NCBI GenBank assembly: GCA_000182565.2
Contig: KQ257452.1
Source of the DNA: Spizellomyces punctatus DAOM BR117
Taxonomy: Eukaryota
DNA: 64,000 nucleotides
Direction: 5' to 3' (one strand)
Position 1 is the stretch's first letter. Every line of letters starts with the position of its first letter. Made by a program: the position numbers and the translations under genes. Shown here one piece after another: positions 7,510 through 63,657 of this stretch. Below the pieces are notes generated by a model, which saw only the letters and a list, made by a program, of their open reading frames with translations, was not told the DNA's origin and made no database searches.

Positions 7510-7678
7510 TGCGTATCTTTGGGGCCGTGAACGTTACGATAAATAATGTGGAATGATCTCACCAGACTTGGACTCTCACAGACTCGTCTTGTCATCGCAT
7601 TGTCAGGTGATCATGCTTGGGAACAGAATCAAGCGTTGTGCGCAGTAACCTATTCCCAAAAAGCAAATCTACCGCATA

Positions 7679-33239: not shown

Positions 33240-34165
33240 TTACTTCATGCAAGGAAAACGTTCAAAAAGGTCTGGAGGAACCGTCCAATCGGCGGGGTCC
33301 CACGGATTGCCGTGACAAACCGCTCGCCGCACTAATTCATCACACAAGGCAGCAAGATCAATGTGTCGACCGTATTTGAGGATTTTCTCGCGAAGAACGA
33401 AACAAGGCATAGTCTCGGCACAGTTTTCAACGGCTGCAGGTGGCTCTAAGGTGGTAGAGAAGGGGTTCTTTGCAGGAGGGCAGCAGCTTTTGATGGGAGG
33501 GCAAGGATCGGGTGTGGGGAGGTGAGATATATGGGCGGTAATGACCGAAGACTCCTCAGCATTGGGTGTTTTGGGATTATCGTCCCATTCTGATTGAATC
33601 GCCGGAAGGAATGTATCCTCGCCTCCCTCTTGAAAGCTTTCGTCCTCTGTATCATCTTCAGTCTGTGTTACGTCCATTGGAACTGGAGAGTAAGTCTTTA
33701 CATTTGCTGGCTCAGCAAATACTTTCTCTTGACGAATGACTGGGCGAGCCTGTAACTCCGCTAATGCCTTTGCCGCAATCATCACGGCGTCGTGCGAGTG
33801 AGCATCCGCCATCTCCTGCGCAACCTCAGGAAGCCACGAGCTAAAGGTAAGAGCCAGAAGCTGTTGTAGCTGCCGGTTCTCTTGACGCAATTGCGCCCGT
33901 TCCTGACCAAGAGACGAGACCTGAGAGCGGAGAGAACGTAATTCGTTCTGGAGCTCAAAGGCCTGCTGTGCGCGTCGCTCTACATGAAGGAAAGCATGAA
34001 TTTCGCGCACATGGTGGAAACCAAACCGAAAAACACGCTACCTCGCAATGCCTTTTGAGCCTGCCTGTTCTTCTCTTTCCTATGCGCAACCATGTCCGTT
34101 ATGAAGGGATTCGGCTTGGCACCTGGCTTCTTGCGCATTGGCCCAACAGAGTCCATATTGGTCAT
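33240..34165 (-). CDS. YAP/AP-1-like bZIP transcription factor with C-terminal cysteine-rich domain
   Basis: 'RKKPGAKP..HRKEKNRQAQKALR|ERRAQQAFELQNEL..' basic region plus zipper (one intron in the basic region); C-terminal 'PCFVLREKI..IDLAALCDELVRRAVCHG' resembles the Yap1/Pap1 c-CRD. Confidence 0.88.
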
Positions 34166-34297
34166 TCGCAAAGACGAAGAGGCGACTGTCCGTCGTTGGC
34201 GCAAGAAGAAAAAAAAAACAAGCTCAAAGGAAGAGCGAGAGCAAAAAGGAACGAGACACCTCTCCCAACACACGTCGCCAAATTTCTTCAAGCAAGG

Positions 34298-34733
34298 GAT
34301 TAGTGTATTGGTTAATACACCAATGTGGATTGAACCACTGGACTGGCGACAACCAGCCCGGAAAAGCTAACTAGCTAACGAACTCCTTACAAGTAACAAA
34401 CTACTACTAGGCCCAATTACACATGCAATACATTACGGTTGTTCTAACCGGGTAACTAGCGCCCACCACCACGAGAGAAATCCTACTCGCCCTTTGATTC
34501 CGAAATTCTTGGAGGATGTTTCAGATACCAAGGTAGATCAGAATTAGACTGGGAATATGCGCGTGGGAAAAATCATCAAGATATACCTGCGATCATAGCG
34601 ATATAGTAGTAGCAGCATTTGCAAGGGGTTATGTTGTATTTGTCGGGCGGACGAGGTCCTCGGCACCAGAGCAGGATTCTCATGATGGACTTGAGAGTTG
34701 AGTGCTGGCAGATGCTTGCGAGTCGAGGGTAAA
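34298..34733 (-). ncRNA. Unclassified structured RNA / micropeptide transcript, copy A
   Basis: Blockwise similarity to 51180-51762; TATA at 34763-34770; covarying hairpins and three-way junction; candidate intron 34549-34586; sORF from ATG 34683 (MRILLWCRGPRPPD...). Ends inferred. Confidence 0.7.
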
Positions 34734-34762
34734 GAAACAAGAGGGAAGAAGAAGAGGGGGGG

Positions 34763-34770
34763 TTTATATA
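34763..34770 (-). promoter_or_regulatory. TATA box of structured-RNA copy A
   Basis: Minus-strand TATATAAA, then a pyrimidine tract and the conserved TTTACCC block ~30 nt downstream, as in copy B. Confidence 0.65.
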
Positions 34771-35171
34771 GAAAAAAGAGCAGATATATTGAGTCATGCA
34801 TGTATGCAGGTGGCAACTGCAGAATATTCCTCTCATAGATGGCCGCAAAGGGATAGTAATTGCCAATCATTCATTGCAGGTATTGGACCCGTTTTTTGTT
34901 TATCTTCGTGAGGATGATGTCACAATAAATGTGGTTAATTCAACCTGGCTGCAATGCTTGCTGATGTGGGAGGGATTATGTTGCACTGAAGATGTTTGAT
35001 TGGTTGAATTTGGCAAGCATATCACGTGTATTAGGTAATCACTCGGCGACGCTCGGCCTCTGGTTGCTAGGTTACTCACGTGATACCCTGTCGTGGCTGC
35101 TGTTGAAGGTCCTTCTCCGAGGTGGAAATTGGGCAATCGTTTTCCTCATCCATCACCCACATCCGCTAGCA

Positions 35172-35619
35172 ATGTCTGACGACTGGAACCCCTCTGAAGA
35201 CCCCAAGCCCCAGATTGAAGCCGGTATGTCATTTGTGCTTGTTTTGCGCAGGTGATTAGATTGTAGCATATTCACTCAATGCTAAATCTCGTCCGTTTTG
35301 GCAGACTGTGCTGAGGGTCACCATTGCCACAGCCTAAAGGCAAAACTCGACGCGTGTACTGCACGAGTGGAAGGCGGGGATGCTGGAGAAGAGACCTGCG
35401 TTGAAGAGTTCTTTGACTTGATGGTAAGCCTCCATTTCCAGCCCCTACTACAGTGTCGTGTTTGACATGTGTTCCTTTCTCTTGTGTAGGAGTGCGTCAA
35501 CCACTGCGTAAGTCTGAAGATCATGGCAATCCCCTTCATAGTCAGATTTGACTGGTATCTAACTTGAGAAATTTGGAAACTTTTAGGCTGCGGACAAACT
35601 CTTTGCAAAGATGAAGTAG
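35172..35619 (+). CDS. QCR6: Cytochrome b-c1 complex hinge subunit
   Basis: 4 exons: MSDDWNPSEDPKPQIEA|DCAEGHHCHSLKAKLDACTARVEGGDAGEETCVEEFFDLM|ECVNHC|AADKLFAKMK*. Confidence 0.93.
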
Positions 35620-36477
35620 AGGAACAGTTGGCGAAGGGGAATGTTGCGGGTAGACTAATATATATCGATTTAATCCTGCGAATGGATCTGGTTGCGATTC
35701 TCCGTGGACTTTTGGATGATGAATTTTTGTGGGCCTTTTTTTTGCCTGTTGAGATGCCCCTCTGATGTGACATGGGTTCGGACGGCAAGATGATGCACCT
35801 CTTCCTTGAACCGGTTTCGTGAGGAAAAGTCGAAGCCGAGCACTAATGCATGAATACCACATGGCACAACTAAACAGTATGCAGCTCCATAACACGGTGA
35901 AGCAACCCCATATGCAGATTACAGGGAGCGTAAAGACATATGAAAGTGCAAAACGGGGTTTCCCTCGCCATTTGCATTCATGTAAAGGACCCATCTTCTG
36001 ATGTTCGGGTTCCATGAGCCCAAGTTCTCCTTGTGCTGGAGACATCTCACCTTTCTTTTACATTTTCATCTGCCATTTAACTTCGTGATGCTTTATAAAA
36101 TTCAATGTTCTGAATGCCTTAATGGCACCCAGGTTACTACCAGAAGTTAATGGAAACCATCTTGTGCTCACAGATTTCATAAGTTACTTTTGTGTATATC
36201 CAGTGGCTCTGCAACAGCAAAAGTAGGTCCAACTCTGGTGCTATCGCTTTACTTTTTGTCGGGCAGCTGCTCCATGCTGCGACACTCGACAGAGCCAACC
36301 TGACGTTCCTTACGCGTCACCAGGCGGAACGTCGGACCACCCAAATGGCCGACTTTGATATCCCAACCTGTTTGTCAGCGTTCGATTTTCGAAAACACTT
36401 TTGATCGACTGAATAGTTTTATTCATATAATCGACGAACAGACGAACAGATCTGTGGTCAAGCGACAAGCAAGGATT

Positions 36478-38264
36478 ATGACGGGGACTATGCGAGCAGT
36501 AGTTGTCAAAAAGCCAGGTGGGGTTCACAGTTGCTTATTTATCTGATAGTGGCATTATTGAAAACGGGCGAAACAAAAGGCAATGCATCCGGGCTGGCGA
36601 TCGATACCGTTCCCAAACCGAGTCCAAAGGACGATGAGCTACTAGTGAAGGTAACAAACCTATCCATCCATTACAAAAAGGAGGTTCTGACTAATCAAAG
36701 TGAACCCAATATGATAGATCCACTCTTTTGCTTTGAACAGAATGGACATTCTCCAGCGGGACCAGCATTACCCCGTTCCAAAGGGGGCGTCTGATATCCT
36801 CGGGGTGGAATTTGCGGGTGTTGTGGAGGAAGTTGGTCCAAAGGGTATGCCGACGATCGCTCGATTTATAGATTGTGGATCTAATCTGACTTGTTTGGTC
36901 AGTGGAGAGGTACAAGAAGGGGGATAGGGTTTTTGGACTCGTCTATGGGGGTGCCTACGCAGAGGTTGGTTGATGTCAACAAAGTTGAATAATGGTATTC
37001 AGGAAAAGTTGACGTGCGATTCAGTATGTGACAATTTCGGAACACATGGCAATGTCCATTCCGGAACAGTTTACCTTTCAACAAGCGACTGCCATTCCTG
37101 AGGTATGCAAAACACTTGTTTGTTTGTGCTCCACACATGATGCTGATCTAGTCCTTGGACAAAGGTTTGGTTCACGGCATATCAGGCTTTGTTTCTGATC
37201 AACGATCTCAAAGAAGGTACGCCTATGACAAAGGTAGATTTACGCAAACTGCCAAGACAGCTTATTTGTAAAACAGGCGAGGATGTCCTCATCCATGCTG
37301 GAGCCAGTGGTGTGGGGTTATCTGCTATTCAACTTGCCAAAAAGGCCAAGGCGTACGTCCGTTTTGTTTGTCATGAATCGTTATATACCATTCCTCATAA
37401 TTCTTTGTTTGCACCAAAAGAAAACACATCATTGTAACAGCCGGACACGAAGACAAGCTCGCATTCTGCAAATCCCTCGGAGCAACCGACGGTGTCAATT
37501 ACAAAAAAGAAGACTTTCAACAAAAGGTGCGGACTTGACAAATGACTTTTTAGACATGCTCAATGTCAACCCACTGCTGTGATAAACAAAAAGGTGCAAG
37601 AAATCACAAACGGAAAGGGTGTCAATGCCATTGTAGACTTTATCGGAGCGGGGTACTGGGATAAAAACCTGGCTTCTTTGGCAGTGGATGGGCGTATGGT
37701 CCTCTTGGCTTTCTTGCAAGGTAAAGTATTTGCTGATCAGTATTTTATAGAGCGTCAAAGCCTGAGCCATTTGACCTATATAGGCGCTGTCCTCGAAAAG
37801 TCCAATATGGCACCTATCCTTCTCAAACGACTCAAGGTATGACTCGTGTGTTTCCATTCGACCAGACTACAAACACTAAGATTGGCCCGACAGATTCAAG
37901 GATCCACGCTTCGCTCCCGTTCACTAGAATACCAAATCGCTCTGCGAAACCATATTGAAAAAGAGGTCCTACCGGGCCTTGTCGATGGAAGTTTGAAATT
38001 GATTATTGATAAGGAATTTGGATGGGAGGACATTGCTGAGGCTCATAGGTGGGTAAATAGTGGTTTTACGCAAGTGAATTGTCACCAATTTGGGGATTGA
38101 ATCGCTCTGATTGGACTTTCCTTTGTTTTTCGGGACAGGTACATGGAAAGTAATCAGAGTATGGGTACGTTATGGTCTTATTCGCATCACACAGTTTCTC
38201 TCCAGCCAAACTCACTTTCTGATCCGGCGCCTCAGGGAAAATCGTTGTAAATGTCACCAAGTGA
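36478..38264 (+). CDS. NADPH:quinone oxidoreductase, PIG3/TP53I3-like (MDR family), many exons
   Basis: 'LNRMDILQR..YPVPKGASDILGVEFAGVV', 'GGAYAE', 'AIPE|VWFTAYQAL', 'VLIHAGASGVGLSAIQLA', 'IQGSTLRSRSLEYQ', 'AH.YMESNQSM|GKIVV'. Confidence 0.95.
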
Positions 38265-38573
38265 GGGCATTTTATGCACTGATATCATAAATCTGCTAGG
38301 CAGATAGTTAGGATCTTGCAGTGTTAGGCAGCATTTACCAGCCAACAGAGTATATATACGAGGCTTGGACAAAAAAGCAGAAAACAAGAAACTAAACACA
38401 ACTTGGTAGATCAAAGAACAATATATACATCAGACCAGAATGCAATCGATACATGGCGTCCCATTCCCATTTGCATTGCACTCCAAATTATGCAAAAGAC
38501 ATCATTCGCCTTCAGATTACTTATGCAGAACCCGCTGGTATACCCAATAACATACGCCACCTGCATCTCCACC

Positions 38574-39903
38574 TCACAATATGGGAACATTGATCCGGGT
38601 AGATCCATTCGTTGACGCCGAGCGCTCAGATGCGCGCATAGGATAAGAGGGTTGTCTGTTAGAACCCATAGGTTGAGCGTATTCTCTAGACGCCTGCAGT
38701 GGATGCGGTTGCTGAGGCTGCGAAGGTACACCGCGTTCGGAAGGACTATAATGCATCGAGACACCAGAGTCTCGCGGCTGCCGGGTTCCGGCGAATGCCT
38801 CTGGCGTCGCATGGTGTAGATGTGGGTCAGATACAGGACAAGACGCGCTTCTCGGAAGATTCAAGTGTGAAGCATTGTGCGCTGTTTCCCAGAATTCATG
38901 CATCGAGGGAATGGTGCTATAGCTCCTAAACACACCGATCCTATCAAAGAAGGGGTCAGAGAAAGGATCGCGGCGAGATGGATCTTGGGAAACTGAAGGA
39001 CGCTGGCGAGTAATGCGTGCCCGTCCAGTCGGAATATCGGCAAAAGGATGACCCAAGAAACCCTGCAAAAATGGGTCCAGATGCTGAAAGCCGGGGTTAG
39101 GCCGACGTGTGCGGCTATGGGCTCGGAAATCTTCAAATGGATCATGACCTGGGGTAATGATAGCCGCGATCCATGGTCAATTCCCTGTCAAGCAGCGCAA
39201 CCAAAAGCATGGTAAACGGCACATACTGAAAAGCTGTTCCATGACGGAAAATAGCGAAGTGTTTCCAAAGAAGGCTTCAAATACATGGAAAGGATCGACC
39301 GGATGTCCTCTCGGGTGTGCTGAAAGAATATAATGAAAAATCAGTACACAGGAGTCGTTAATACAGTGAACCGCAACACCACTTCACCGGATGGGACTGA
39401 CGGATTCTCTGGGATATCCTTGGCTTGAGCACCTGAAGTAACACGCATGTGGTTAAGCACCTTTCACAAAATGGTTCTCTGAAAATGTCTAGGTCCTACC
39501 CGTGCGATCGTAGTACGCTCTCTTTTGATCTTGATTATCAAGCCAAATTAGAATCAACGATCTATCATGCTCTTCCACCGAAACTTGTTCATTCACTCCG
39601 TACCATCGCTCAACACTTCATATGCCTCAGCTACAAGCCGAAACCGCATTTGAGCTTCCTCAGCATTTTCCAAATTTTTATCGCTGAACATCAAAGGAAT
39701 CGGTATGAGGGCGCAAGTTGATATTCGCACTTCGAGTCAGACTTACGGGTGCCATTTAAGCGCTTCCTTTTTGTAACTACACATCAATACTACATTAGTA
39801 CGTCAATTCATGGCAGGAAGAACCAACCCACTTACGCTTTTTTGATATCTTCTGCGGTGCAGCACTGTTCCAGACCAAGTATATCGTAATACTCTGTTGC
39901 CAT
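38574..39903 (-). CDS. DnaJ/Hsp40 J-domain protein (DNAJB6-like)
   Basis: MATEYYDILGL..EDIKKA|YKKEALKWHP|DKNLENAEEAQMRFRLVAEAYEVLSD, followed by a G/F-like 'DPFHVFEAFFG' region. Confidence 0.92.
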
Positions 39904-40905
39904 ATTGACGCGACGGTGACCGAGATCACAGATGAATGCGTTCAGCAAATCTCTTCACCGTAAAACAAGTAGACAAGTTCGACAGGTAAAGTTGCGGCAA
40001 TCTGCAGTCGCCACAGATGGCGAATAAAACCTCCGTGGGGAAAACGAAGGAATGGCTGCGTAGGAAAGGGCGTGTTACGTGAAGTTGATGGCACAGCTGT
40101 TCATGATTATGTCAGCAGAAACTGCCAGAACTGCGCTTTCGAACATTCCTTTTTGATAACCAGTTGACATGGTCTACCATGTGCAACAAGCAGATGTCAT
40201 GACATGGTATCAGAGGCAGATACACACAAGTGGTACTCTGATACGCAGTCCGTGAGTGCTTTGAGAAGGCGACGTCTACTGAAATGGAGTAGACTGTAAC
40301 GCCTAGCTGCATGCCCACCGTTGAGGTCCAATGCATGGGCTGTTCTTTAGTGCACTACGTTTCTTTCTTGGAATTGACATGCTCATGCGTTCATGCTTTC
40401 TACTCGTTTCTGGCTCAGCGTTACGATTTAATGAACTAAAACTTTAACAATTCTCTGTAACATTGTGCGTAAATACATTGCGACCCTCTTGAAGGCTGCC
40501 ACGAATGACGATGACTCAGAGGGTTTGGGATCGCGCTTCCGTCATCCGGAATTCCCGCTGCCGACCAGCAAAACGGCATTTGTCAAGTTTCCAATTCCAC
40601 ATCTTTTAAAAAGAGCGACTTGCAAAGGTCACTTTTATAACCTCATCTCCATTCTCCACTCTCATACCATCGCAACGTTGCATCGCCACGCCCAACGCAT
40701 AGCCGCTTGGAGGCGATCCTTCGAGCACAAGCACCGAGACACTGCTTCTCAGCTCTCTGCTGCTATAGACAACTTTCGACGAGCATTACCTAAAGGTGCT
40801 GACCCTCGAATTTGCAACGCTCAGAAAGCCCGTACTCTCAGAGTCCCGTTCTTTACTCCACAACGACTTGCCTCATTACGGCGGCGCATTGTTCGACAGT
40901 CCACA

Positions 40906-42798
40906 ATGGCCGACGTTGCATTTGTGCCCCACCAACAACCCAAGGGCCGAAGTTGGTCTTTGTTCTCCTGGACACCGACATCAGTGACGCTGGCGCAGGC
41001 GGCAGAAAACAGGTTGCTCTCTAGATTTCAGTACTTTAAGCCAGCGAGTACCCTCGTGGGAGCTGCTACACCACAGGAGGCTCGTGAAGCTGTACAAGAA
41101 ACAACCGAACTGCCAACACCAACCAAAGACATCTCTCAAGATATTGCGTCGGTGCAATCCACGGAGCCGAACGAGAGTTTGATTGCCCGTGTGGGCCTTG
41201 TAGACGTTGGCGATGGGCAAATGATCAACACACTAGTTATCGATCGAACAGATGAAAAGTTGCATCATACCACGGGTGCTGGTATCCTGCGAAGAGAACT
41301 GAGTCATGGATCAGGCGGCGAAATGGTTCACTTGGAACAGGACGTGGCCCCCGTGGAAGAAGTTGGTCGAACGGGCACAAAGAAGAAGACTCTGGTTATG
41401 GCGCACGGATATGGGGCTGGGTTGGGTTTTTTTTATAGGGTACGTTTGGTGATAAGCTCTCATCCAATACGGCAACCTGCATTGTTAATTCTTTAAGGTC
41501 AACAGAACTTTGCTGGACTGAGCGACGTCTCCGGCTGGAGAATCTATGCTATCGACTGGCTTGGCATGGCAAATAGTAGTCGTCCGCCATTCCCGAAATT
41601 AAAACGTGGAGCAACGGATGATGAAATCGTGGAAGATGCGGAGACGTTTTTTGTAGAATCATTAGAAAAGTGGAGAGAGGCGAATGGTATTGATTCAATG
41701 ACATTGATGGGTACGTATATCAGACTTTCATATTCGCCATGGTTATAATCTGATGCAGTTTTTAATAATAAATAGGACATAGTCTGGGTGGTTACCTCTC
41801 TGCATGTTACGCGTTGAAACACCCTGAAAGAGTCGAGAAACTTGTGCTTGTTTCGCCAGGTACATATCGCATGTTCAAATGGTGCAGCGGCTTGGCCTCT
41901 ACTAAAATTCTCGGATATCAGCCGGTGTTGGCAAAATACCAGAAGGTCAGGAAGCGGCACTGAGACGACGTGGATTCCTACCCGCGCTCTTTACGACGTT
42001 GTGGTCATGGAATGTTACACCCATGTCTGTTATTCGTACGATGGGGCCCTGGGGTGAGTATTTTCTTATAAGATATCTTATTCGATAGTACACGTCAATT
42101 GCTAATGCGCTGATGAATAGGTCCATCACTGGTCCGCAAGTACACAAGTCGTCGGTAAGATGGACTGTTTGGACGTTGAGTGCGAGCCTGGATATTCATG
42201 ATTATCGTTCAGGTTTGCCTACCTTGACCAGAGCGACGCAGACGATCTGCACAGTTATATCTATCATATATCAGCTCAGACCGGAAGTGGAGAGTTTGCA
42301 TTAGCAAGATTACTTTTGCCGGTATATTACCTCTTCGAAGCTTGTTGTTGTTGCATCCTCTAATGAGTGCTTTGTTCCGCATAGGGAGCTTGGGCACGGA
42401 AACCCCTTCACGACCGCCTAGCCAATTTGAAGATGCCAACGACCTTCTTATGTAAGCACCAGTAAAATGTAGACCATCCGTTTCTTTACAATTCTGATAA
42501 CAAGACCATGTCACTTAGACGGAGCGCACGACTGGATGGATTACCACGCCGCCATGAGTGCCGTTAAAGGAATGAAGGTACCCACCCGAATAGCCCGCGT
42601 AGCTGATTCCGGCCATCACTTGTATCTTGGTACGTATAATTATCGTTTTGAGGACTGCCGCCATTTCTGACTCGACTGTTGTGCGTAGATAACCCAATGG
42701 GGTTTAACAATGCCATGATTGCCGAGATGGTTAATAAGGATGTTGCGCGAAAGGGGGTGGAAGATGTTGAGTATGTTCATGTAAATGACCGGCGGTGA
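40906..42798 (+). CDS. CLD1: Cardiolipin-specific deacylase / ABHD4-ABHD5-like alpha/beta hydrolase
   Basis: '[18 protein letters not shown]', '[16 protein letters not shown]', '[10 protein letters not shown]', '[26 protein letters not shown]', 'DWMDY', 'GHHLYL|DNP'. Confidence 0.9.
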
Positions 42799-43068
42799 TA
42801 TAAGGCTGGCGCTCGAAGCATAGATTTTAATTTATAGCGATTATCGTACGATTTATATGCAAGGAGGTTGAATCGCAAATACACGGCGAGTAGATCTGGT
42901 TTAGATCACGTGACAGACCTCAACTTGATGACATCACGCGAATTGTTGAGAAGTGTTCTTTCCTAGCCATTGCGTTTGATATTCCTGCCCTTGTTCTCTT
43001 GGTCGCCTTGTCTATCCTTTTGCATTTCCAAATATTCCATACTTGCATTACCGCAACAATCTTCCAAT

Positions 43069-43781
43069 ATGGCAATGAGAATCAGCAACAAAATCTTGAA
43101 CGGCCTTATTCAACAAGTATAATAGCAATTGACACTTTTCCGCAAATGCCACCTTTAATCGCTTCACATACACTCAGGCTAACCGCGAACTGTCCAATTC
43201 AAATGCCTATCTCTCCATGTCCTTGTGGTTCCAAGACCGTGAACTTCCTGGCTCGGCCCAATGGTGCAAAACCCAATCTGACGAAGAGCGCATGCACGGT
43301 CTAAAGATTTTCGATCACATTGTAAAGAGGCGGGCAAAGGGGGCTTTGGTGCACGCAATCGGGCAACAAAAGTTTTCGTATGATGACCCTTTGCAGATTT
43401 GGTTAGTAGGTCTAAATGTTTTTTGGTTTGCTTGATTGGACATACTGATATATCATTTGTATGTGTAGGGAAAAGGCTCTGGAACAAGAACAGCTCAACT
43501 CGGTTGCCATCATGGATCTCGTCCGACAGGCGCGAGAAGAGGGTGACTATACGACCGACACGTTTCTTCAGTGGTATGTCGCGGAACAGCTTAATGAAGA
43601 AACGTCTGTGAAGGATATTTTGGAAAATGTAAGTCGGTTCTCTATTGTGTGCAACTTCTGGAGTATGCCCTTGTCGCATGGTGGTGACAGTATTGCGTAT
43701 TTGATCTAGGCTAAACGGGTCGCCGCAACGACTGGGTTGTATGTTACATTTGATTCGCAAATAACGAGGAAGCCACATTGA
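43069..43781 (+). CDS. Ferritin, prokaryotic non-haem (FtnA-like) type, 4 exons
   Basis: Spliced: MAMRISNKILNGLIQQ|ANRELSNSNAYLSMSLWF..LPGSAQW..QSDEERMHGLKIFDHI..|EKALEQEQ..AREEGDYTTDTFLQWYVAEQLNEE..|AKRV..LYVTFD; ferroxidase-type residues (E, EE..H, E, Q..EE) present. Confidence 0.92.
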
Positions 43782-44172
43782 GCATGTCATGAGGAAAAGC
43801 AATTTTCGAGACGTTGTCCGCGTTATGGTCTGCTTGGTCGAATGGTTTGTGGGTGGGTAGGGAATATATTTAGGTCTGTGCATAGCATCAAAATATAATG
43901 TAACTGAACCTCTGACAGCATCAAAGAATGGAAAATCGTATTTGTTTTGTGAAATTCGAAAGTCCAAGTGCATCCCAAAAAAAGCCAAACCCGACAAAGG
44001 AGTGTCCCCACCCAAATAACAGAAACCCGAATAACAGAACTATATACATTTCGTTAAAAAGGCCTGCAAGATAGTCTGCTATACTATTCAAGAAGAGCCA
44101 ACGTAACGCCCACCACCAAAAGATATTGAAAAGATCCAAGGCGATAACCTGCTAGAGCCAAAATATGTCCAC

Positions 44173-45370
44173 TTAAGCGGCGTGAACCACTCGTACTTGC
44201 GGTTTGGCACCCAAGAAGGCTCGTTTGAAAGCTTTGGTGAGCTTCTTCACCGCCGGAGATTTCGATTTAACATCAATTTTTTGTGCTTCTTCTCCTTCTT
44301 CTTCATCTTCATCGCTGCTGGTGCTGTTCTTATTGCTTGTGGCAGTGATGATATTAGCGTCCGAGGTTTCCATTGGAGTAATGGATTGATTTGATTCATT
44401 CTCCTCTATTTCTCCACTTTCATCCCCGCTCAATTCATTATCTGCATCGCCGCCCTCATCATCTATCAATTCCTCTGGGGGTATCAGTTTCACTTCTTCA
44501 GCGAATTGAACACGACGCTTTGGTCGATCTGTACTAGGTCTTTTCCGCGTCAAAACTCCAGTTGTTGCCGTCAAAGGACGACATACCACCTCGGTTGGCT
44601 CCTCGTAAGAGTCTGATCCTCGTCTTGAGGCTTCTGCACTCGACACGTCCAAATGGGAACTCGCCGCAGCAGAATCCAGTTCCAGGCCCGCGAGGGCAGC
44701 ATCCAGTTCATCCTTGGCGAACATTCGCCCGGCACCAAATGAACCAGTGCTCATGGATGATCGCCTGGCTGTCATATCGAGATTCGACATTGTGGATGAT
44801 GTCGATGGGGTTGAGAGTTGGGTAAATGATGTCGACGCTTCGGATGGGGAGGAAGCGGCTTCAACGTCGGCGGCGAAGCTGGCGTTGGCGTCTCGTACAA
44901 GCGCTGCTCGATACCGTTTGGACCACCTTTGATATTATAAAATAATAAAAATACTTGTAAGCATTCTCCCCTCGTCAAGAACCATTAAACTCGGTAAACT
45001 CCCATCACGCCTCACCTCAACATGACATACATCCTCTCCATTCTCTCCCGTTCCTCTCTGTCCTCTTGCCCCTCAGCCGGCGCCGCCCGCTTACCCAACA
45101 TATCTCTCATAATAGCGTCATCCAATACACTCCCCCGTCGTCGGGTCGGAGGTGGAGGAACGCTGTCAAGCATGTCGTTTTCGTCCGAAGAATCGTGCTC
45201 TTTCTGCATGTCATCGAGAAGGTGCCCAGTAAGGGTTCTCGCATCGTCTTCATCCGAATGTCGGGAGAGTTTGTGGAGGTTCTCCTCCTGTGCCTCAAAA
45301 ATGTGTGGTTCGGCCGTGGTTGTGATGTGGTGGGTGGGGGAATTAGACTTTGATATGCTTGCGTTCTTTT
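44173..45370 (-). CDS. Acidic low-complexity protein with RVxF-type motif (5' end unresolved)
   Basis: Open frames 45012-45370 and 44173-44930 linked by a GT..AG intron; 'PKRRVQFAEEV' matches the PP1-docking RVxF consensus. Confidence 0.6.
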
Positions 45371-46457
45371 AAAGGACCGTGTTGCTTCGAATACATAAAC
45401 ACACACCGAGTTGCTCAACCCTTGTATGTACTTGAGAAATAGTGCACAAGATATACGCAAACTGAGAAAGTCGGTAATCTATAAAACCTAAACTGCCGTT
45501 TGCAGGAGAATTTCCACCAGGTCATTCTTTTCACATCCTTCCAGGTGTTATCGCAGTTTTTTTTTTGCTCACGGGCACACCAACACAACACATACACACA
45601 ACACAAATCCCACTCAAAATGTCTGGCTCACGTCACTATCAGCACCTTTTGCTCCCTCTTGTCCCTTCATGAACGAGATTTAATGGGGACCACCCACGAT
45701 CTCTTCATTGATGGCCTCACTGAACTGCACCGATACCCTAACCCTCGCGCGTATTCAAGTTATTATTGTTGTCCCAAGCCAAGCATCGCAAAGGAAACCC
45801 TGTTCAGCATCTATATGGTATTCCTTCTCAAAAAAGAATACGATCGATCTCACACACTCAGCTGCTCAGCAACACACATAGGAAGGAATCAATCCTTTTC
45901 TGTCCCGCCTCGCCGAAATGCATACATCCCATCGGTCGGGTCCATGGAGTGCCCAAACAGAAAAAAAATAAGCTCTGGCTTTACTTCAAATATTGTGACC
46001 AACCCATTCAAGTATCCCGGTGGTATGGCATCGAATCAGAATTTACATGCAATTGGAAACGATGCACCTTGTATTTGGTAGACCATGGAGTTCAGATCTC
46101 ATGCATGGAGCACAAAGAGTTTACAAGGTTTACAACATCACATCCCTCAGACGCTGTATGTTGGGGGATGACTCCCGATCATCAATGAGAGCCGACTAGG
46201 TCAATGATCCACAAATTGTGTTACCTCCCCTGACTCTAGAACTTCGAATACAGATATGCGCAAAGCTGAGCAGCGTCCTGCAAGTTTCTTGATGATTTAG
46301 TCAATGGTCGGGGGGAACAGCAAGAACGTTCAATGTAAGCACCGATGCGACAATGAACGTCCATTACAACGATTTCGTGGCGAGGGCAATTCAATAGTGC
46401 TCGCTTGCCATCTCAACGATTACGTAATGTCGGAATAATACCAAAGCGACATTGGTG

Positions 46458-48279
46458 TCAAGTTGCATCGTTCTTTCCCACATTGAATGAGCTCGTGGTT
46501 CCATCTCGCTTCATAATCGTCACTGATGGACCCGTGCGCTTTGGAGGCTGAGAAGCCATGGATGAAGTTGATGACGTTGAAGCTACACGATTGCGGGACA
46601 TTTTCCTGCTATCGTCTTTCTCTGGCCATGCCTCTGCAGGTTTTGAAAGATCCGTGGTTCCGGTATTGTCACGGGATCTCACTTGCCGAGGTTTACTTTT
46701 GCGAGTGTCTGTATCGCCTTCATTGATTACAGCCGTCACTCCATCAGCTGATGCATCGATGAGATCGCCTTCGAGTCGCGTTCGACGTTTCTGACGATAC
46801 CCTCTCCCTTTACTTTCCTCCCTCTCCTGTAAACCAGGTCCATTGCTAGCTCTAGCTTCTGGCGCCGTATCCCCACTAGCGGAGGCATCGTTTTGAGAGT
46901 CTTCATCCGCTTTTTGCTTTCGAGCACTCCCCCGCGGTCGCTTGGTCTCTTTGGCTCCGAGCACAGCACCCAATGAAGCCTTGAATAATCCCCCGGTGGG
47001 AGCAAGGCGACTTCGCCGTTGTTCAGCTTTAGGTGTCACGTCCGTAGCCTCCTTGGAAGAAGCGCCAGATGCAGACGGAGTAGTTGCAGACTTCTTTCCA
47101 ACGGGTGATGAAGATCGTTTGACTATTCCAGTTGGGACGACACTCTTTGTCATGCCAGAGGTACTTCCGGACTTGCCACCTTCCTTGGACTTTGAGGAGG
47201 ATTTCTTCTTTTCCGATCGTCGTGATTCTTTGCCTTTTGCATCTGTGACTGCTTTTGTTTGTTTACTTCCCTCAGCGCGTGACGCTGCCTTCTTTGCGCG
47301 AAGTGCATCGAGCAGAGGAGTCGACTTTGGTTTATCGGGTCCTGCGAGTTGGGATGAGCTTGCTGTTACTATCGAGGTGACGGTTGAGTGCGCAACGCCT
47401 TGCTCCTTCGCCACTTGATCCGCCAACAACGTTCTTTCCAATTTTTCCAGCTGTGTTTCTCCAGTGGCTACACTAGATGCTGCAGCCTTTGCTTCGTTGT
47501 CTTCTTCGAGACTTTTGAGAAATGCCAGAAAATCTGGGTCTGTGATAACCGCGTAAAGAGGATTAGTCTAGTAACAACTTGTCGCAATTAGACACGTTGT
47601 ACAAACCTTGTTCGATCGTATTCATTCTCGGGTCAGGCTTCTTCTTACTCTTTGGAATACGCTGGAAAGGGGCAAATTCAACCACAGCCCGATGCTCAAC
47701 TCCTGTCGCAAAGATGAGATAAAGGTCTCGCGCCTAACAAACAAGCAGGTCCCCATACCTTTGGAATCTACAAAGAGATGACCATTGTATGTACGACAGA
47801 AATCAAGAAGAGCATCGATGTTTTTAAAGTTGAGATATGCTCGAGAGAACACGCTGATCTTGGCTTGGCTGCAATTGAAATGAATGTAAGCTTTTACATA
47901 GGTGGTGCATCTGTTCTCCGAATGCTATATACTATACCTTGTGGCAATCTTTCCTGCAACAAAAGTCCACCAATCCGTCTCACCCAGCCATTTGTCAACG
48001 GTCGTCTTGAAGATCTCTTCGGGAAGATGAGGAGGTAATCTGCGAACGACAATCTTTGTGCGTGGCTTGTTTTCTTTTGCCTTACGACCGGGTCGCTTCC
48101 GTGTTCGGCGTGAGCGTTTCTTGTCATCTGCCTGACTGCCTTTTGAGCGTTCATCTCCAACACTCCGAGTTGAGCTGTGGGATACTTCAGCAGCCGCTGG
48201 AGTCACTGCCAGTTCAGAGATATGTTCTAATATCACAGCAGAATATTCTTTGCTGACCTGCTTCCGCTGCTGTCACCAT
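46458..48279 (-). CDS. UPF3: Nonsense-mediated decay factor UPF3 (Smg-4/UPF3 family)
   Basis: 'KIVVRRLPPHLPEEIF', 'FSRAYLNF', 'GHLFVDSKG', 'VEFAPFQRIP', 'DPDFLAFL', 'TPLLDALRAKK'. Confidence 0.92.
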
Positions 48280-49536
48280 GATGCCCCCAGGAATCCTCTT
48301 TAAGATTGTCGTTATCCCTTGTTCAAACAGCCTGTGGTCAATTCGATGCGTGGGTAAGTGGGGAACGATCGACAGTGCCACATGATAAGTGGCACAGTAA
48401 CTGATAACGCACTTGTATGCAGCGATGGAATAGTTATCTTTGGCTGTTACCACCCTGAACAGGCACGCATCTCAAGGAGATCCGCAAATGCAGATACTGG
48501 TACTCATTACATTTCTCATCGTTGTAAATGTGATGCTCAGACTCTTGTCTAGCTTACATATGGTGCCCATCCCTATATGCGCTATGGTTCATTCACCCTG
48601 GTTCCCAATGTCCTTATGTGTTGCATTCTGTCTTGGATCCAACAAAGTCAATGCTAATGTTGTTTTGCGCAAGGAAATAGTTCCCAATGTTATTCATCGC
48701 CGTCCCTCCATCTAATGCATTGGGCCTGTTTGGCAGCACATTTGTCTTGGCATTCTCATCAATAAGAGCCTTTTGATCAAAAGTTGGAGAGCGAGTTTGT
48801 TAAATGACTTCATGTCCACAACGATTGTAGGCACAGCCATGAAACTGGGTGGCAACGTGACTCCACGTCATGATAGCGAAATTGAACGAGTTTAGCGGAG
48901 TTGATCAGTTTTGGCGTCAAGCAAACAGCCAAGTGTTCTAAAGTTGCAATTTTCACAATTTTGGTTTTCCATCCTTCCGCTTCCATCTATCTCGAGTTTT
49001 GTCCATTCCTGTCTACCTCATTGCCTTTTTGCATTGAAAAAGAATATTCAAAAGCGACCTCAACTGCGACGCATACCTCGACCAGTCTGCGCATTCATCT
49101 CAGTGGACACTAGAACGTTGTGGTCAAGCTTGCCTTCTCGCCAACAATACAGTACAGGGTCTCTTGCTGACAAGCGTATGCCAACATTTGGCCGTAGCTA
49201 GACCTTCCGACGACCATAACGACCCTAAAAGCTTCAAAACCAGAGGAATAAGCTTGTGTGCAGTTAGTTGCTATTTTTAGCCTGGAAACCTCCGAGGTCG
49301 TTGGTGGTTCCCACTTTATGAATACCAAATACGAACGTTTGAATCGCATGCGGTAGCTCAAATTGTCGTCAGAAGGACTGCCACCGGGAAAGGGACATTG
49401 GGGTGTGGAGGGCTACACAGAAAAAGCGAGAAAATTACTGAAGTTTAGCAAAAACCTACTCTCTTTGCAATCATTTTCACACAACCGGCTACATTCATTT
49501 CTGGAACATCAAGTACTTCCATAGGAACAACACACT

Positions 49537-50974
49537 ATGATGACCGATGGATCGTTTTCTATGGAATCAGAACGGAGTGCTTCCCACATGCGTGCTGATA
49601 AACGCCCGGGGGTGCTTGACCCGCTCAAAATGAGATCCACAAAACATCGCACGAGTTACTCTTCTGCATCCTCATCCTCATCGACGACCTCCTCTGTCGA
49701 GCATCACCTTCACGAATCAGCGGAAACAGACGCGGGTGGAGAGTGTGACTTGTAAGTTGTAAAGCTGTTCAGCCATCAGAGTGTTGCGTCAGGTTGTTAA
49801 CTATTAACATTTACGTAGTGGTGAATCAATGTTACCGTCATGCATATCTCCTGCGCTGTATCCAGCTGAGCACTACACATCGCTAACCACATTAAATCGC
49901 TCTCTTACCCAATCCGTTCTCCGATTTGACCAACTCACAACATCATACATCAACCTTCGAAACCAGTTGCGGAACATCCTGGACAGTGTCGAAGAGCAGG
50001 AACGACAATATGAAGCTTATATTGAAGAAATAGGGCAGCTGCGCTTTGAACGCAAGTTTTTGAGGGAAGTGGTTGAGCTGTCTTCGTTCAGGGAGCGTAA
50101 GCAGTCGAATGCATCGGACAAAAGTATAAACAGCACCGGGGCAAACAAGCGATGGAGCTCACCCATGAACACAGATAATGGTGATGGCTGGGGAAAAAAC
50201 GCACGACGATGGACGGTGGGAGGCGCACATTCATTAGGAGCATGTGGTGCTTTCCACAGTTTGCCAACTAGCCCGCGTCTCTCAATAACAAGTTCAACCT
50301 TCCTCCCGCACGTTGACGACGAGAATCGCGTAACGGTAGATGACCTAGCGTCGCGGAAAATTCAACGGGAAGCCTTTGCTGCCATGCTTCAAACTATACG
50401 TGAAACGTTTCTGGTGGGCGCGGGATTCGCTTCGACCATTGGGCCATTTCAAGGCTTGGAAGTGGACTCTGATGAGACGGATCGCTCCAGCTGTCGTTCC
50501 CCTTGCTCTTCCCCCGGCACCCCCGTCACTCTCCTCAACCCTAGTGTTCCGTCGTCACCAAGCCACATCCGCCCCACCCCACTCCCTTCGTACCCTTCCA
50601 ACGAAAAACATGTAGAAACCATACACGCACGAATATCTCATCTCACAAACCTTATTGGACAGCTCGCACCTTCTGTTGAAGCCCTTCGCGAAAGTCTTGA
50701 GGACGTCATTGCAGGCCCCGCATTGGCGTATCGTGCGTGGGTCCGTGAAGCAGAGATTGAACGGGAAATGCTTCGAGTCGAATGTGAGGGTTTGCGAGAA
50801 GCTCGAGAGGGCTCTAAAAAAGTTGTGGATATGAGAGGAGTGAGTGAAGCATCAGTTGGCCTGATTTCGTCTGCGCTAGAGTCCTTGTGGGTTGAGCAAG
50901 GTGATGATGATCACGAAGAATGGGAATCAGAATCGGTGTACTGGTCGTGTGATGAGGGTGACGATGAACGGTAA
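49537..50974 (+). CDS. Hypothetical coiled-coil protein (2 exons)
   Basis: Ser-rich exon from 49537 plus 381-aa ORF 49829-50974 with two similar heptad segments ('EIGQLRFERKFLREVVE' / 'EAEIEREMLRVECEGL'). Confidence 0.7.
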
Positions 50975-51179
50975 ATCTCCCCACAAATGGGGGCCACCTC
51001 TATGTAACTTTTGTTTTTGGTATCTCTTTCATAGTCTGCATCTCCATAGGGGATGTGCGCTTTTTACTTTTATCTATGATTGTCACATTGTCTTGTCAAA
51101 ACGTGCAATTAAAATAAATAGTCCGGTGTCGAGAGGTGGCAGAACGTTCATCTCGAATGTTTTACCATAAAAATTGGTT

Positions 51180-51762
51180 CTACTTGATCATAAGTAGTGT
51201 AGAGGTGACAGAAACTGGCACTAGCTACTACACCAGGGAATAAACCAGCGACAACTGGTTCGGAAAAGCTAAGCTACTACTAGGCAATTATACACGCAAT
51301 ACGTAACGGTTGGTTTTAACCGGATAATTGCCCACCACCACACACGGTCCCTACTAGGCCTTGATCTGGAACTCTTGATGGCATTGAAGCCAGACTCTTG
51401 CATCCAGGAGCGAATCGACTGGGCAGCGTCACAAGCCAGAGGATGTTCAGTGACAAGGCTTGGAGACTACAAAAAAATGCATGTCAGCGACAGAATAATA
51501 TGAAAAGAGATGATGCCATTGGTACATACCAACCAAGCTCAACTAATGTGGCAGCATAATAGTAGGTTTTGTTATCGGATCCGATTGGTTGCCGCTGGTT
51601 CTGATCACGGTTGCTGTCGGGCGGTCGAGGTCCTCGGCACCACCACATCTGCATGCTCATGGTTGACCGAGTCGCAATGAGGTTGCAATGTGGGTCGCTA
51701 TGAGGTTGCAATGGGTCGCGATGAGCGTTGGGCAGATGGTTTGAGAGTCGAGGATGGGTAAA
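51180..51762 (-). ncRNA. Unclassified structured RNA / micropeptide transcript, copy B
   Basis: Paralog of 34298-34733; TATA at 51793-51800; canonical intron 51467-51529 (GTATGT..GCTGAC..TAG); sORF from ATG 51660 (MSMQMWWCRGPRPPD...). Ends inferred. Confidence 0.7.
51670..51725. repeat. Short tandem repeat (~22 nt x 2.5) in the leader of copy B
   Basis: GTCGC(A/T/G)ATGAG repeated three times, with GTTGCAATG(TG)G spacers. Confidence 0.8.
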
Positions 51763-51792
51763 GAGGAAAGAGGGAAGAGAGGGCAGGTCCCC

Positions 51793-51800
51793 TTTTATAG
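51793..51800 (-). promoter_or_regulatory. TATA box of structured-RNA copy B
   Basis: Minus-strand CTATAAAA, ~30 nt upstream of the conserved TTTACCC block. Confidence 0.65.
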
Positions 51801-53136
51801 ACCTTGAGTGTGGCAAAATGGGGTCCAGCTGAAAAGAAAAAAAAACATTACATTAGCATGCCACACCGCAGTTTGGAGAACATTAGCAGGACGCTTTCAG
51901 CGATGGGGGTTCTGATTATGCAATATAATTAACCGGATTGATCCGGATGATAATGGATACTAGTGCCATTTACTGTCAGCTCCACACTATTGATGCATTC
52001 ATTACATGCATATGTGGACCCAGTTTACGGTTTTCGAGACCTATTTCTGACAATTGTTGACAAAGGACATTTACAAGTCGTTCAATGTCGCCTGCGGTAT
52101 GCCATTGAATGCGAACAAAAATGCAACTGAATCATGCTGTCATTTTGTTGTTTACGCCCTGATCTCGCTCAGTAATCATGTTTTGGTTGCATGCATCGTC
52201 CTTTCCAATGTACGGAGGATCGCTCCGAATTCAGGAATTTGGGAAAAAGAGTTCCGCCCTCCAATAGTCCCAATGGTAACAAAGTGGCATCATCGTTTGA
52301 CCACGCACTGATGAAATCCCTCAACGCGCGGACAGCCCTTGCAAGGGGGTACGCGCTACAAGCATCTCCGAGTGTGCTGTGGAAATGCCCCCGCACGAAC
52401 TCAATGTTTGGACAAACCAAAACAGAATATAATCATAATCCGGGAAAATCCCAACCATCACAGCATGCAGAAACGCTGTCAATTCGGCAGTCTGTCCAAA
52501 TCACAAAAAAAAAAACCAACGAAAAGGAGAGGGAGTTGAAGGGACATCCATGGCATGGCTTTTGGGCGCAGATGCTTCCTTTCTCCTTTTTTTCCTCTTT
52601 GAGTATATATCATGTCGTATGTGGACAAATCAGTTCAACCTCCTACTTACGCAATGAACAAAACCGCTTATCTCTTTTTTTTTTTTTTGGCTGTGTTCAG
52701 TCTTTGGTTTTTGAGGAAGGCGGTCGGGAGGTTCACGCCAGCGCGTTCATTGTCCTGTTGCTTTTGACAGCACCTTTGTCTTTTGGACATTTCCGTTTTG
52801 TTCCTTTGTGTTTGAATGTAAACCATTGTATTCCTTGTTTGTCATCGTCATCGTCACATTAAAAAGGAGTTATCTGCTGTCATCTTTTGTTGTAGCGTAG
52901 ATTTGCTGCGCATGAGTCCACAGGAGCACTTTGTCTCTCCTTGCGCGTTATTTTGAATGCTTGGGGGTTGAGACAAGGGTGATAGGCTCATCGACATAAA
53001 AAAAAAAACCTACAGAAGAGCGTTTTTGGATTCATGTTACAGAAACATCTCAAACGGGGTCGACGGGCAACTGGACGCCATCCCCGGCCGACTGTCCAGG
53101 ACGTATTGGTAAACTGGGTCAACAATAAGGACAAGA

Positions 53137-53664: not shown

Positions 53665-54271
53665 ATGTGGTATATAAACGTGTCCATCATGCATGCACTA
53701 AAACCTATTTTTTTGACTTGTTACTTTTAGATCTCAAAATTGAGAAATGGGGGCAGGATCGACATGGGCGATGGGTACGTAGGAGGGTTACGTATAAAAT
53801 CCATGTGAAAGCTCCCATGTGTATGTATGCACATCCTAGGATAACATTCCAAGAAGCGAGTTTTCTAAAGTTTTTGTGTTTTCAGATGGAAATATGTTGA
53901 CGGTGGCCATTGAAGATCAACATGTCGTCCAACACGAATACAGGTAATGGTGCTTTTTACCCGGTAGGGCAGACCAGCTGTAATCTCAATGACTCGCCAA
54001 AACAGCGTCCTCGTTGTAGATGTGACGACCCTCACACCTTCCCTGCCTTATGGAACAGTCTTTTCAACGGTGCAACGATACTGCATTACCCCAGCTGGTG
54101 TTGGTGGACAGCGAGGTGTGAGAGTGCGTGTTCATGCCTGGGTGGAGTTTTCCAAAAAGGTCATGTTGCAAGGTATGCATTTACATTTTTAAAACTCTGT
54201 TTGCAAACGTTATAGTTTGTTGATATTGGGAACGTCGGTTAGATGCGGTTACCAAAACAGCTTTGGAAAGC

Positions 54272-55798
54272 ATGGCGCTTTCTACCCGATACCTTGATGA
54301 AGCGCTCCTTCATCTCGCAGCGGGAGGAACAGGTCGACTACCTTACCACTACGAACGCCCATCCCGACAAACCGATATCCTTCCCGAAGACGTTCTGACT
54401 CACCGTGGATTAGAAACACCACCAGACTCTGGACGGACCTCTCCCACATCGTCTTCATCGACCTCTTCCCGTGCGTCCAGCTCGTCAAGCAGCAGTACCG
54501 ATACATCCACACCATCCACGACATCCTCTACTGATTCGGCGAGACGAAGGCTATACGGTCCACGACCCATTCTGGGATCTGAGACGCCGTCTACACCCGC
54601 TTCGACCATTCACACGACCGTTGGGTCTACACCGGCTGGTATCACACCAACGGGTATCACACCCGGTGGTAGAGAAGCGGCACGGGAAGGATACTTTACA
54701 GGCGTCCCCGTGCCCAAACTCGATCGAAAACCAGTTGGACCAAGACCTTTTGGTGGGTGGCCACAATCCACACCAACAACACCAAAACTCGAGACCGAAC
54801 AAGCGGAAAAGCAAAACCGACATCCACCCATGGCAGTGGTATGGGAAGGCGGAAAATGGGTGGAAGCCCATCCGGCCATCGCTAAAAAGCTCGTCGCAGA
54901 AAAACGAGAAGGGCGCAAGAGGGTGCTGAAGAGGGAAGGTGGAGCTGTCGCTGTTTGGGCTGAAGGACGGTACATTGTCGCAGGGGAACGAGAAACCAAC
55001 CAAGATACGATAAAAGTACAAGCAACCCCCGACACAGCTCTGTCATCACCTATTACATCCACCCATCCACTCGTTACTTTATCTGAACCTACCGCAACAA
55101 AAGACCCACCCTCGAAACCACTTAATGCATCCTACACCCGCCCACCAACTCCACCCTCAGCAGCACTCGTACCCAAAACCCCAGCTGAAGCAGCCGAATG
55201 GCGAGAAGCAGCAGCCAAAAGACTTGAAAAACATTTATCGAAAAAGAAAAGTATGGAGAACGCAAGTGGTGCATTGGTTGGAAGTGGGGAAGGTTTGGAA
55301 TCATTGTCGGGAGTACCGTCACCCCAACTCGTATCTACCATTCCGCAAAGTCCGACTCCATCCGCCGTACAAGTAACACCACCAACAACCCAACCAACTG
55401 AACCGACAACATCAACATCAACAACGGTTATCCCTTACACCCCACCACCCCAATCATCCACACCACGCCCCGTAACCCTCCTCATAACCTTCCATATCTG
55501 CGGTATACTCCTCCTCCTATCCCAACTCGGTTTTTTCGGCATCCTACGATGGATCTACGTCCTCGTATCTTGGACACTCCGTACGCTCTTGTGGAGTATC
55601 ACGCTCTTGTTTTTCCGTCGTACGCGTCCGTCTCCGCAGATTGTACATCATCAGGAACCCATCCCGGATTCGGCGTGCCGTGTACCAAACAAAGAGGATG
55701 ATGGAGTGGTTGTAAAGTGGGGTGAACTTTGTTTTTGGTGGGGTGTTGTTGTGATTGTGGTTTTGGGTGGTGTGAGGGGGTTGGTGAGGAGGGTTTGA
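54272..55798 (+). CDS. Pro/Ser/Thr-rich hypothetical protein with C-terminal transmembrane segments
   Basis: Long intronless ORF (ATG 54272) with hydrophobic stretches near the C-terminus. Confidence 0.7.
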   Translation: MALSTRYLDEALLHLAAGGTGRLPYHYERPSRQTDILPEDVLTHRGLETPPDSGRTSPTSSSSTSSRASSSSSSSTDTSTPSTTSSTDSARRRLYGPRPILGSETPSTPASTIHTTVGSTPAGITPTGITPGGREAAREGYFTGVPVPKLDRKPVGPRPFGGWPQSTPTTPKLETEQAEKQNRHPPMAVVWEGGKWVEAHPAIAKKLVAEKREGRKRVLKREGGAVAVWAEGRYIVAGERETNQDTIKVQATPDTALSSPITSTHPLVTLSEPTATKDPPSKPLNASYTRPPTPPSAALVPKTPAEAAEWREAAAKRLEKHLSKKKSMENASGALVGSGEGLESLSGVPSPQLVSTIPQSPTPSAVQVTPPTTQPTEPTTSTSTTVIPYTPPPQSSTPRPVTLLITFHICGILLLLSQLGFFGILRWIYVLVSWTLRTLLWSITLLFFRRTRPSPQIVHHQEPIPDSACRVPNKEDDGVVVKWGELCFWWGVVVIVVLGGVRGLVRRV

Positions 55799-63557: not shown

Positions 63558-63657
63558 NNNNNNNNNNNNNNNNNNNNNNNNNNNNNNNNNNNNNNNNNNN
63601 NNNNNNNNNNNNNNNNNNNNNNNNNNNNNNNNNNNNNNNNNNNNNNNNNNNNNNNNN
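63558..63657. other. Assembly gap (100 N)
   Basis: Run of N. Confidence 1.

Follow-up and report, generated by a model that had tools for sequence, protein, structure and literature searches.

Two related loci, A and B, lie on the minus strand of the window, the 64,000-nt stretch of Spizellomyces punctatus DAOM BR117 DNA analyzed here (A, 34770–34286; B, 51989–51180; Table 1). The first-pass annotation had described two minus-strand loci sharing the same ordered blocks, and all of these blocks were indeed located in both. In order, the loci share a TATA box, a leader, an ATG, a 28-nt block, a TAC/TAT triplet block and an intron, followed by GTGGTGGTGGGC, a set of hairpins, CCTAGTAGTAG, TTAGCTTTTCCG and a hairpin whose loop is TTGTCG. 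The 28-nt block has no third site in the window and no match in 100 shuffles. Local homology spans 34772–34337 in A and 51801–51214 in B and stops short of the flanks. The CCTTG..CTGAA..CATCCTC block, which had been placed after the intron, lies there in B, where it belongs to exon 2, but is intronic in A. Copy B had been given as 51180–51800; the blocks do lie there, but the element extends farther upstream: a terminal inverted repeat at 51989–51960 marks its end, some 190 nt beyond the TATA box. The B leader further contains a near-tandem duplication (51680–51735; ..CCCATTGCAACCTCATAGCGAC / CCACATTGCAACCTCATTGCGAC..) which is missing from A and explains part of the length difference between the two loci. 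By eye, neither Helitron ends (TC...CTRR) nor a solo-LTR pattern was seen, and the A/B homology begins at the TATA box.

Table 1. Features of loci A and B, with positions as numbered in the window.
Feature	Position	Strand	Basis
A TATA box (TATATAAA)	34763..34770	-	sequence; RNA depth step downstream
A exon-1 ORF, ATG at 34683 (MRILLWCRGPRPPDKYNITPCKCCYYYIAMIA)	34587..34683	-	exon end set by RNA-seq joint 34507/34587
A 28-nt block	34641..34668	-	27/28 identical to B
A intron, 79 nt, GT..AG	34508..34586	-	18 skipping reads, 9 start places
A three-way junction (outer stem, CGGTT/AACCG hairpin, second small hairpin)	34410..34464	-	fold and A/B comparison
A CCTAGTAGTAG block	34401..34411	-	spliced A ORF stops at TAG 34409-34407
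A omegaRNA-like scaffold, 66 nt	34301..34366	-	fold and named-nucleotide scoring
A UCC and stem-loop 1, UUGUCG loop	stem-loop 34359-34340	-	three doubly changed pairs relative to B
A extra hairpin at linker position	34338-34325	-	fold
A short stem 2	34323-34301	-	fold
A flank at the putative 15-nt guide position (ATCCCTTGCTTGAAG)	34286..34300	-	position by analogy with the main text of PMC10432273
B left-end 30-nt inverted repeat, CATCAA before it	51960..51989	-	pairs with 51195-51224
B TATA box (TATAAAAG)	51792..51799	-	sequence; RNA depth step downstream
B exon-1 ORF (MSMQMWWCRGPRPPDSNRDQNQRQPIGSDNKTYYYAATLVELG), holding the 28-nt block (51615-51642)	51530..51660	-	91% identical to SPPG_09412 and SPPG_08830
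B intron, 63 nt, GT..AG	51467..51529	-	932 skipping reads (927 + 5), 21 start places
B three-way junction (GGCAATTAT/ATAATTGCC outer stem, CGGTT/AACCG, TACGT/GCGTG)	51283..51332	-	60-nt fold, z -2.18
B omegaRNA scaffold, 74 nt	51195..51268	-	fold z -3.36; 15/18 named nucleotides
B stem-loop 1	51261-51242	-	fold
B 6-nt linker AUUCCC, then stem 2 with 3-nt bulge	linker 51241-51236	-	fold
B right-end inverted repeat, the last 30 nt of the scaffold	51224-51195	-	pairs with left repeat
B flank at the putative guide position (CTTATGATCAAGTAG)	51180..51194	-	position as expected from the main text of PMC10432273

Around the two loci, a bZIP-like transcription factor gene was recognized by eye at 33240–34160 on the minus strand (MDSVGPMRKKPGAKPN...KEKNRQAQKALRE...). 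Its start lies some 130 nt beyond the would-be guide of A, downstream and in the same orientation, and read-through from A could enter it. Elsewhere, a kinase ORF is 96% identical to an S. punctatus protein, the next named species being Powellomyces at 65%, and a 524-aa ORF (54224–55798) has no relative in the PDB and no Pfam family. A run of 100 Ns at 63558–63657 marks an assembly gap.

Transcription was followed in one S. punctatus RNA-seq run (X8; about 6% of the run, with reads no longer than 60 nt) mapped to 33800–52300. Strands were calibrated on neighboring genes, whose GT..AG introns lie on the plus strand and whose reads are first-mate-plus; reads at A and B are first-mate-minus. Mean depth reaches 7,543 over 34417–35033 and 11,118 over 51076–51692, as opposed to at most 459 in any other bin. 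At A, minus-strand depth rises from 0–1 at 34750–34782 to about 5,100 at 34703–34705, which places the start site between 34750 and 34706; at B, it rises from 3 at 51780–51782 to 151 at 51739. Transcripts thus start some tens of nucleotides past each TATA box, which supports TATA-proximal transcription from the minus strand, and the candidate introns of both loci are confirmed by spliced reads with GT..AG borders (Table 1). The B scaffold is covered by long-RNA reads, with a minus-strand depth of 302 at 51194, 225 of these carrying another letter. With reads of no more than 60 nt, mostly from paralogs, a ~90-nt omegaRNA from A or B themselves is a prediction.

Several further features of the transcripts were observed. 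Just upstream of the A start, plus-strand reads cover 34750–34782 at a depth of 176–307; since most carry alternative letters, they stem from paralogs, and A-type elements may be transcribed divergently. At the joint 34379/34466, 51 reads skip 86 nt spanning the three-way junction, a segment also absent from the annotated protein gene SPPG_09019, so that some family members do without the junction. A root metatranscriptome run (X1) yielded only short pieces of the junction region. The A intron contains a TGATGA and two CTGA motifs in C/D-box snoRNA-like spacing; a snoRNA was rejected here, as the B intron is devoid of such motifs and Rfam gave no match.

The family extends well beyond the two loci. 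In a DNA run (X2), summed contig depth is 41 and 126.7 over the two loci against roughly 1–4 in other bins, or about 10–40 times the single-copy level. Of 314,709 mapped RNA reads, 299,670 fit only partially, many positions show an alternative letter in at least half of the reads, and some reads join A-like and B-like segments. Taken together, partial fits, alternative letters and DNA depth indicate a family of tens of copies from whose other members most RNA reads derive. Four annotated relatives (SPPG_09412, SPPG_08830, SPPG_09019 and SPPG_09407) are spread over three other contigs. The first-pass annotation had described two copies and favored selection on an RNA over a recent repeat, and had itself named many dispersed copies as evidence to the contrary; depth and relatives point to such copies.

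Compared with shuffled sequence, the 3′ domain of B is much more stably folded (z −4.08). Its first element is the three-way junction, in which a 9-bp outer stem is joined by two hairpins, CGGUU/AACCG and UACGU/GCGUG; a stop-codon block, the UUGUCG-loop hairpin, a 6-nt linker and a long second stem follow. Across 33 pairs of the A/B alignment (62 cells), 96.8% are standard pairs compared to 34–41% with slid partners. Five pairs are doubly changed between A and B (0–2 in the slid controls): one in the outer stem, one in the second small hairpin of the junction and three in the UUGUCG hairpin, with one more seen by eye in the proximal part of the last stem. Compensatory changes thereby occur in four of five helices, as would be expected under the proposed selection on RNA structure, and, coming from two sequences, this covariation is suggestive rather than statistical proof. 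The suspected lack of a known RNA-family signature also held: Rfam 15 gave no match at the gathering score in the whole window, and in E-value mode the two loci returned only noise (E 5.9 and E 10; 16 bits). Upstream of the scaffold, all three reading frames are closed within 60 nt in both A and B, which has a chance of about one in four.

The identity of the family emerges from published work on the RNA-guided nuclease Fanzor. In S. punctatus, Saito et al. (2023; PMC10432273) counted 134 "ghost Spu-1" loci next to 42 loci of Fanzor (SpuFz1). According to the main text of that study, ghost loci contain no Fanzor ORF and exhibit 30-nt inverted repeats, a CA upstream of the 5′ repeat and a conserved region of ~550 nt; their last 75 nt, including the 3′ repeat, constitute the omegaRNA scaffold, which carries a 3-nt bulge in stem 2 and has no pseudoknot (PMC10432273). 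Native transcripts extend 14–15 nt past the scaffold and provide the guide, the TAM is CATA, and no transposase is known for Spu-1 (PMC10432273). In the structure, C32, C34 and U35 contact Fanzor, while the distal stem 2 (C40–G70) is dispensable (PMC10432273). A 2026 paper describes 126 unique ghost scaffolds, all of 74–76 nt (PMC13434818), and four ghost scaffolds support editing in human cells (PMC10432273; PMC13434818).

Copy B was compared with this description. Its terminal repeats (51989–51960 and 51224–51195) are complementary at 26 of 30 positions, with no match in 100 shuffles, and it comprises a 74-nt scaffold at the right repeat and no Fanzor ORF. As the full scaffold sequence is not printed in the main text of either paper (PMC10432273; PMC13434818), the link between B and SpuFz1 rests on named positions, architecture and inverted repeats. 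For the comparison, the 18 omegaRNA nucleotides named in the cryo-EM text were used, with a single 1-nt gap permitted in stem 1. Of these, 15 are present in B (U5 C6 C7, U16 G17 U18 C19 G20, A29 C32 C34, U35 G37, A72 A75), which misses G22 as well as C40/G70, which are U/A in B, all of these being stem positions. Among 127,850 starts on both strands scored with the same gap freedom, only B reaches 15, and the next best reaches 13. Repeats, two-stem fold and nucleotide matches together identify B as a ghost Spu-1 element, that is, a Fanzor omegaRNA locus without a Fanzor gene; the TTGTCG-loop hairpin is stem-loop 1 of a Fanzor omegaRNA. The family had been considered unrecognized, and instead matches the ghost Spu-1 elements already described from the same organism (PMC10432273; PMC13434818), with which it has in common the multiple copies, the absence of a Fanzor ORF, B's 30-nt repeats and a 3′ scaffold of 74–75 nt with two stems, a 6-nt linker and a putative guide in the flank. 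A difference to the main-text description (PMC10432273) is the length: B measures 795 nt from repeat to repeat compared to the ~550-nt conserved region. The left boundary of B reads CATCAA followed by TAGTGT..., with CA one base removed from the repeat (CAA). No further copy of the B repeat was found elsewhere in the window, and hence no other Spu-1 element with such repeats. Searching the window for trans targets, defined as CATA followed by the guide, returned one other match per guide, with 3 mismatches, and counts within chance.

Within B, a 13-nt stretch of exon 1 (51588–51600; AACCAGCGGCAAC) is 92% complementary on the minus strand to 51243–51255, the loop and 3′ strand of stem-loop 1. 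The CGACA closing the 28-nt block is likewise complementary to the UGUCG loop in A and B alike. These complementarities could represent an alternative pairing that masks the scaffold.

Copy A retains the promoter, the leader, the start of the short ORF, splice sites and intron, the three-way junction, the UCC lead-in and stem-loop 1, whose loop is identical and whose stem is compensated. In the place of the AUUCCC linker of B, it contains an A, a 14-nt hairpin and AUU, and its stem 2 is a short hairpin of 9–10 bp. At 66 nt, with an extra hairpin instead of the linker, the A scaffold falls outside the published range of 74–76 nt (PMC13434818). It matches 11 of the 18 named SpuFz1 nucleotides, a score that is not distinctive given that 313 of the 127,850 starts reach it, and linker positions C32 and C34 as well as U35 are missing or substituted. 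A left inverted repeat was not found within 630 nt upstream, where scores stay below those of shuffles. By the published description of ghost loci (PMC10432273), A thus departs in end repeats, scaffold length and linker. It is best read as a diverged, worn and atypical family member that is probably immobile, may be impaired as a source of omegaRNA and likely lies outside the published ghost set.

Traces of former boundaries may persist around A. The sequence TAATCCCT occurs in only two copies in the window, both on the minus strand and flanking A: one (34295–34302) straddles the end of the scaffold and the would-be guide, the other (34971–34978), roughly 200 nt before the TATA box, reads CATAATCCCT with the CA that precedes it. 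The pair could be a target-site duplication or the remnant of a TAM-plus-target site of A, two matches per window being within chance. In addition, a 21-nt segment of the A scaffold (34318–34338) is 71% complementary to 34931–34951, which is set about as far inside the putative left boundary, and this statistically weak match could be a worn A-type inverted repeat.

Alternatively, A might be a functional minimal variant representing a subfamily whose trimmed stem 2 and different linker are used by a Fanzor paralog. DNA depth of 42–81 over A exon 1, compared to ~3 elsewhere, suggests about 10 or more A-like copies, and A-like RNA reads are abundant (depths of ~4,700–8,300). Moreover, the 66-nt stretch folds well (z −4.72), and loss of the distal stem 2 would accord with its published dispensability (PMC10432273). 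Against this stand the absence or replacement of the linker nucleotides C32 and C34 and of U35, which contact Fanzor in the structure (PMC10432273), the missing inverted repeats, the uniform 74–76 nt of all 126 published ghost scaffolds (PMC13434818) and the fact that the reference letter of A at position 34595 is found in only ~52 of 4,721 reads. A functional A-type subfamily is accordingly regarded as unlikely, if the most plausible of the alternatives.

A second alternative, judged less likely still, holds that the loci are small protein-coding genes for a WCRGPRPPD..YYY micropeptide or a C-terminally prenylated peptide, in which the conserved blocks would be coding sequence or UTR. The ATG and its context are indeed conserved, the A ORF opening with MRILLWCRGPRPPD..YYY.. 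and the B ORF, which encodes 93 aa once spliced, with MSMQMWWCRGPRPPD..YYY.., and four relatives are annotated as hypothetical proteins. The sole difference within the 28-nt block is a synonymous CGT/CGA exchange, to which reads add CGC, likewise synonymous, as a third variant of this codon, and the triplet block (TAC TAC TAT or TAC TAT TAT) changes synonymously as well. However, near-identical B-type copies terminate exon 2 in four different frames (..GGGQLSG*, ..QEFQIKA*, ..NCLVVA* and ..RIACIIA*), so that exon 2 encodes no conserved protein, the reading frame of SPPG_09019 shifts before YYY, and one conserved block that is exonic in B falls within the intron of A. Five of the six four-fold sites of the 28-nt block are unchanged, in contrast to the unalignable spacers; this comparison suggests that the block is conserved beyond coding needs and constrained at the nucleotide level. 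CAAX-like endings are present in two of six ORFs, in different frames (CIIA in SPPG_08830, CNWA in the spliced A ORF), while the other four end elsewhere; a pheromone or prenylated peptide precursor was rejected because no single frame is conserved across the six. The earlier suggestion of a micropeptide is consequently left with a conserved ORF start and downstream frames that differ among six copies, and appears weak.

The near absence of relatives outside S. punctatus also speaks against a protein-coding family. Among proteins of 23–76 aa, the B exon-1 ORF has no relative, and among longer ones it has two, SPPG_09412 and SPPG_08830 of S. punctatus DAOM BR117; neither has a Pfam domain listed, and no literature naming either was found. 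Searching SPPG_08830 with phmmer against 1.84 billion representatives (E ≤0.001) gave five matches. Besides the query, these were two relatives from S. punctatus and two weak translations of tandem repeats (E 3.3e-6 and 2.5e-4), the latter being the only matches outside S. punctatus. SPPG_09019 and SPPG_09407 were added by this exhaustive search and a cluster look-up. The two weak matches, P0008 and P0010, are translations of a 64-residue tandem repeat on ENA metagenome contigs and resemble the SPPG_08830 exon-2 frame (E 3.3e-6; motif ..E.PPAC[DE]AA..I..). A metagenome scan with the degenerate pattern WCRGPRPPD produced 11 loci on contigs of 54–72% G+C, all of them rejected as pattern-only chance matches. 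Descent of the ghost ORF from Fanzor was also rejected, as phmmer found no Fanzor match among all PDB chains at E up to 10.

Least probable of all is an independent family of cellular Pol II structured non-coding RNA genes unrelated to transposons and Fanzor, the ordinary RNA gene family of the first-pass annotation: TATA boxes, spliced transcripts, conserved islands with covarying helices, the blank Rfam search and the repeat-less A would suit it, but the 30-nt terminal inverted repeats of B, tens of dispersed copies, the 15/18 match of B's 3′ 74 nt to the SpuFz1 omegaRNA in the same two-stem architecture (PMC10432273) and the stem-loop 1 with preceding UCC common to A and B argue against it. 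With good confidence, both A and B are thus assigned to the Spu-1 ghost family, non-autonomous transposon-like elements without a SpuFz1 gene and with an omegaRNA at the right end, B being intact and A diverged.

The organization of B suggests how such an element may operate. From left to right, it comprises the left repeat, a ~160-nt spacer, the TATA box, the leader, a short ORF with a 63-nt intron, the three-way junction, the stop-codon block, the 74-nt scaffold ending in the right repeat, and the flank that would serve as guide. Minus-strand RNA starts shortly after the TATA box, is spliced and runs through the scaffold. This long spliced RNA would be the precursor of a ~90-nt omegaRNA. Based on published Fanzor work (PMC10432273), a Fanzor encoded elsewhere in the genome would bind the 3′ scaffold, the RNA would be trimmed to ~90 nt including 14–15 nt of flank as guide, and the complex would cut DNA bearing a CATA motif and a match to the guide. 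The junction, the 28-nt block and the stop codons near the scaffold might serve expression, processing or ribosome clearance. More speculatively, ghost Spu-1 elements could be self-contained guide-RNA genes instead of mere deletion remnants, each with its own TATA promoter and a spliced mRNA-like precursor whose 28-nt block, junction and stop block would be selected for expression, ribosome protection or omegaRNA 5′ processing and loading, with A-type copies as a miniaturized scaffold class; this extended proposal is tentative and considered less likely than not.

Bacterial TnpB omegaRNA loci and IS200/IS605 derivatives likewise make a right-end guide RNA that reads into the flank, and their nuclease-less copies are served in trans. 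The ghost elements resemble them in both respects, the guide at the right end and the dependence in trans, but differ in that the Fanzor scaffold is without a pseudoknot (PMC10432273). Here, furthermore, a eukaryotic Pol II transcript with a TATA promoter and an intron would carry the RNA as its 3′ part. MITEs, in turn, are short, multi-copy and dispersed elements with terminal inverted repeats and no transposase gene. The A/B family is likewise short, multi-copy, dispersed, bounded by end repeats in B and without a transposase gene, but would stand apart through its own promoter, its spliced transcript and a presumably functional RNA scaffold. Finally, snoRNA host genes and pri-miRNAs are Pol II transcripts processed into small RNAs. 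As in these, an mRNA-like spliced precursor would give rise to a small structured RNA, but the putative product is a 3′-end nuclease guide and neither intronic nor hairpin-derived.

S. punctatus is a model host for Fanzor, in which the native making of guide RNAs has been little described. To our knowledge, no eukaryotic RNA-guided nuclease had been shown to be programmable before Fanzor. The loci described here belong to a known Fanzor-associated mobile-element family and not to a new class of RNA genes, and the RNA-level view of the first reading was largely right. No mention of the TATA promoter, the spliced precursor with its intron, the mini-ORF, the three-way junction or the 28-nt block was found in the main text of either paper (PMC10432273; PMC13434818), and the new content is modest: the architecture of a Pol II unit with an intron, the junction with its covariation and the atypical repeat-less member A. 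Judging from these loci, ghost copies lacking Fanzor are Pol II units that bear a TATA box and an intron, and in which a further conserved part, the covarying three-way junction, immediately precedes the guide scaffold. If these parts control the production or loading of guides, they would be relevant to guide design and to what the ghost repertoire does naturally.
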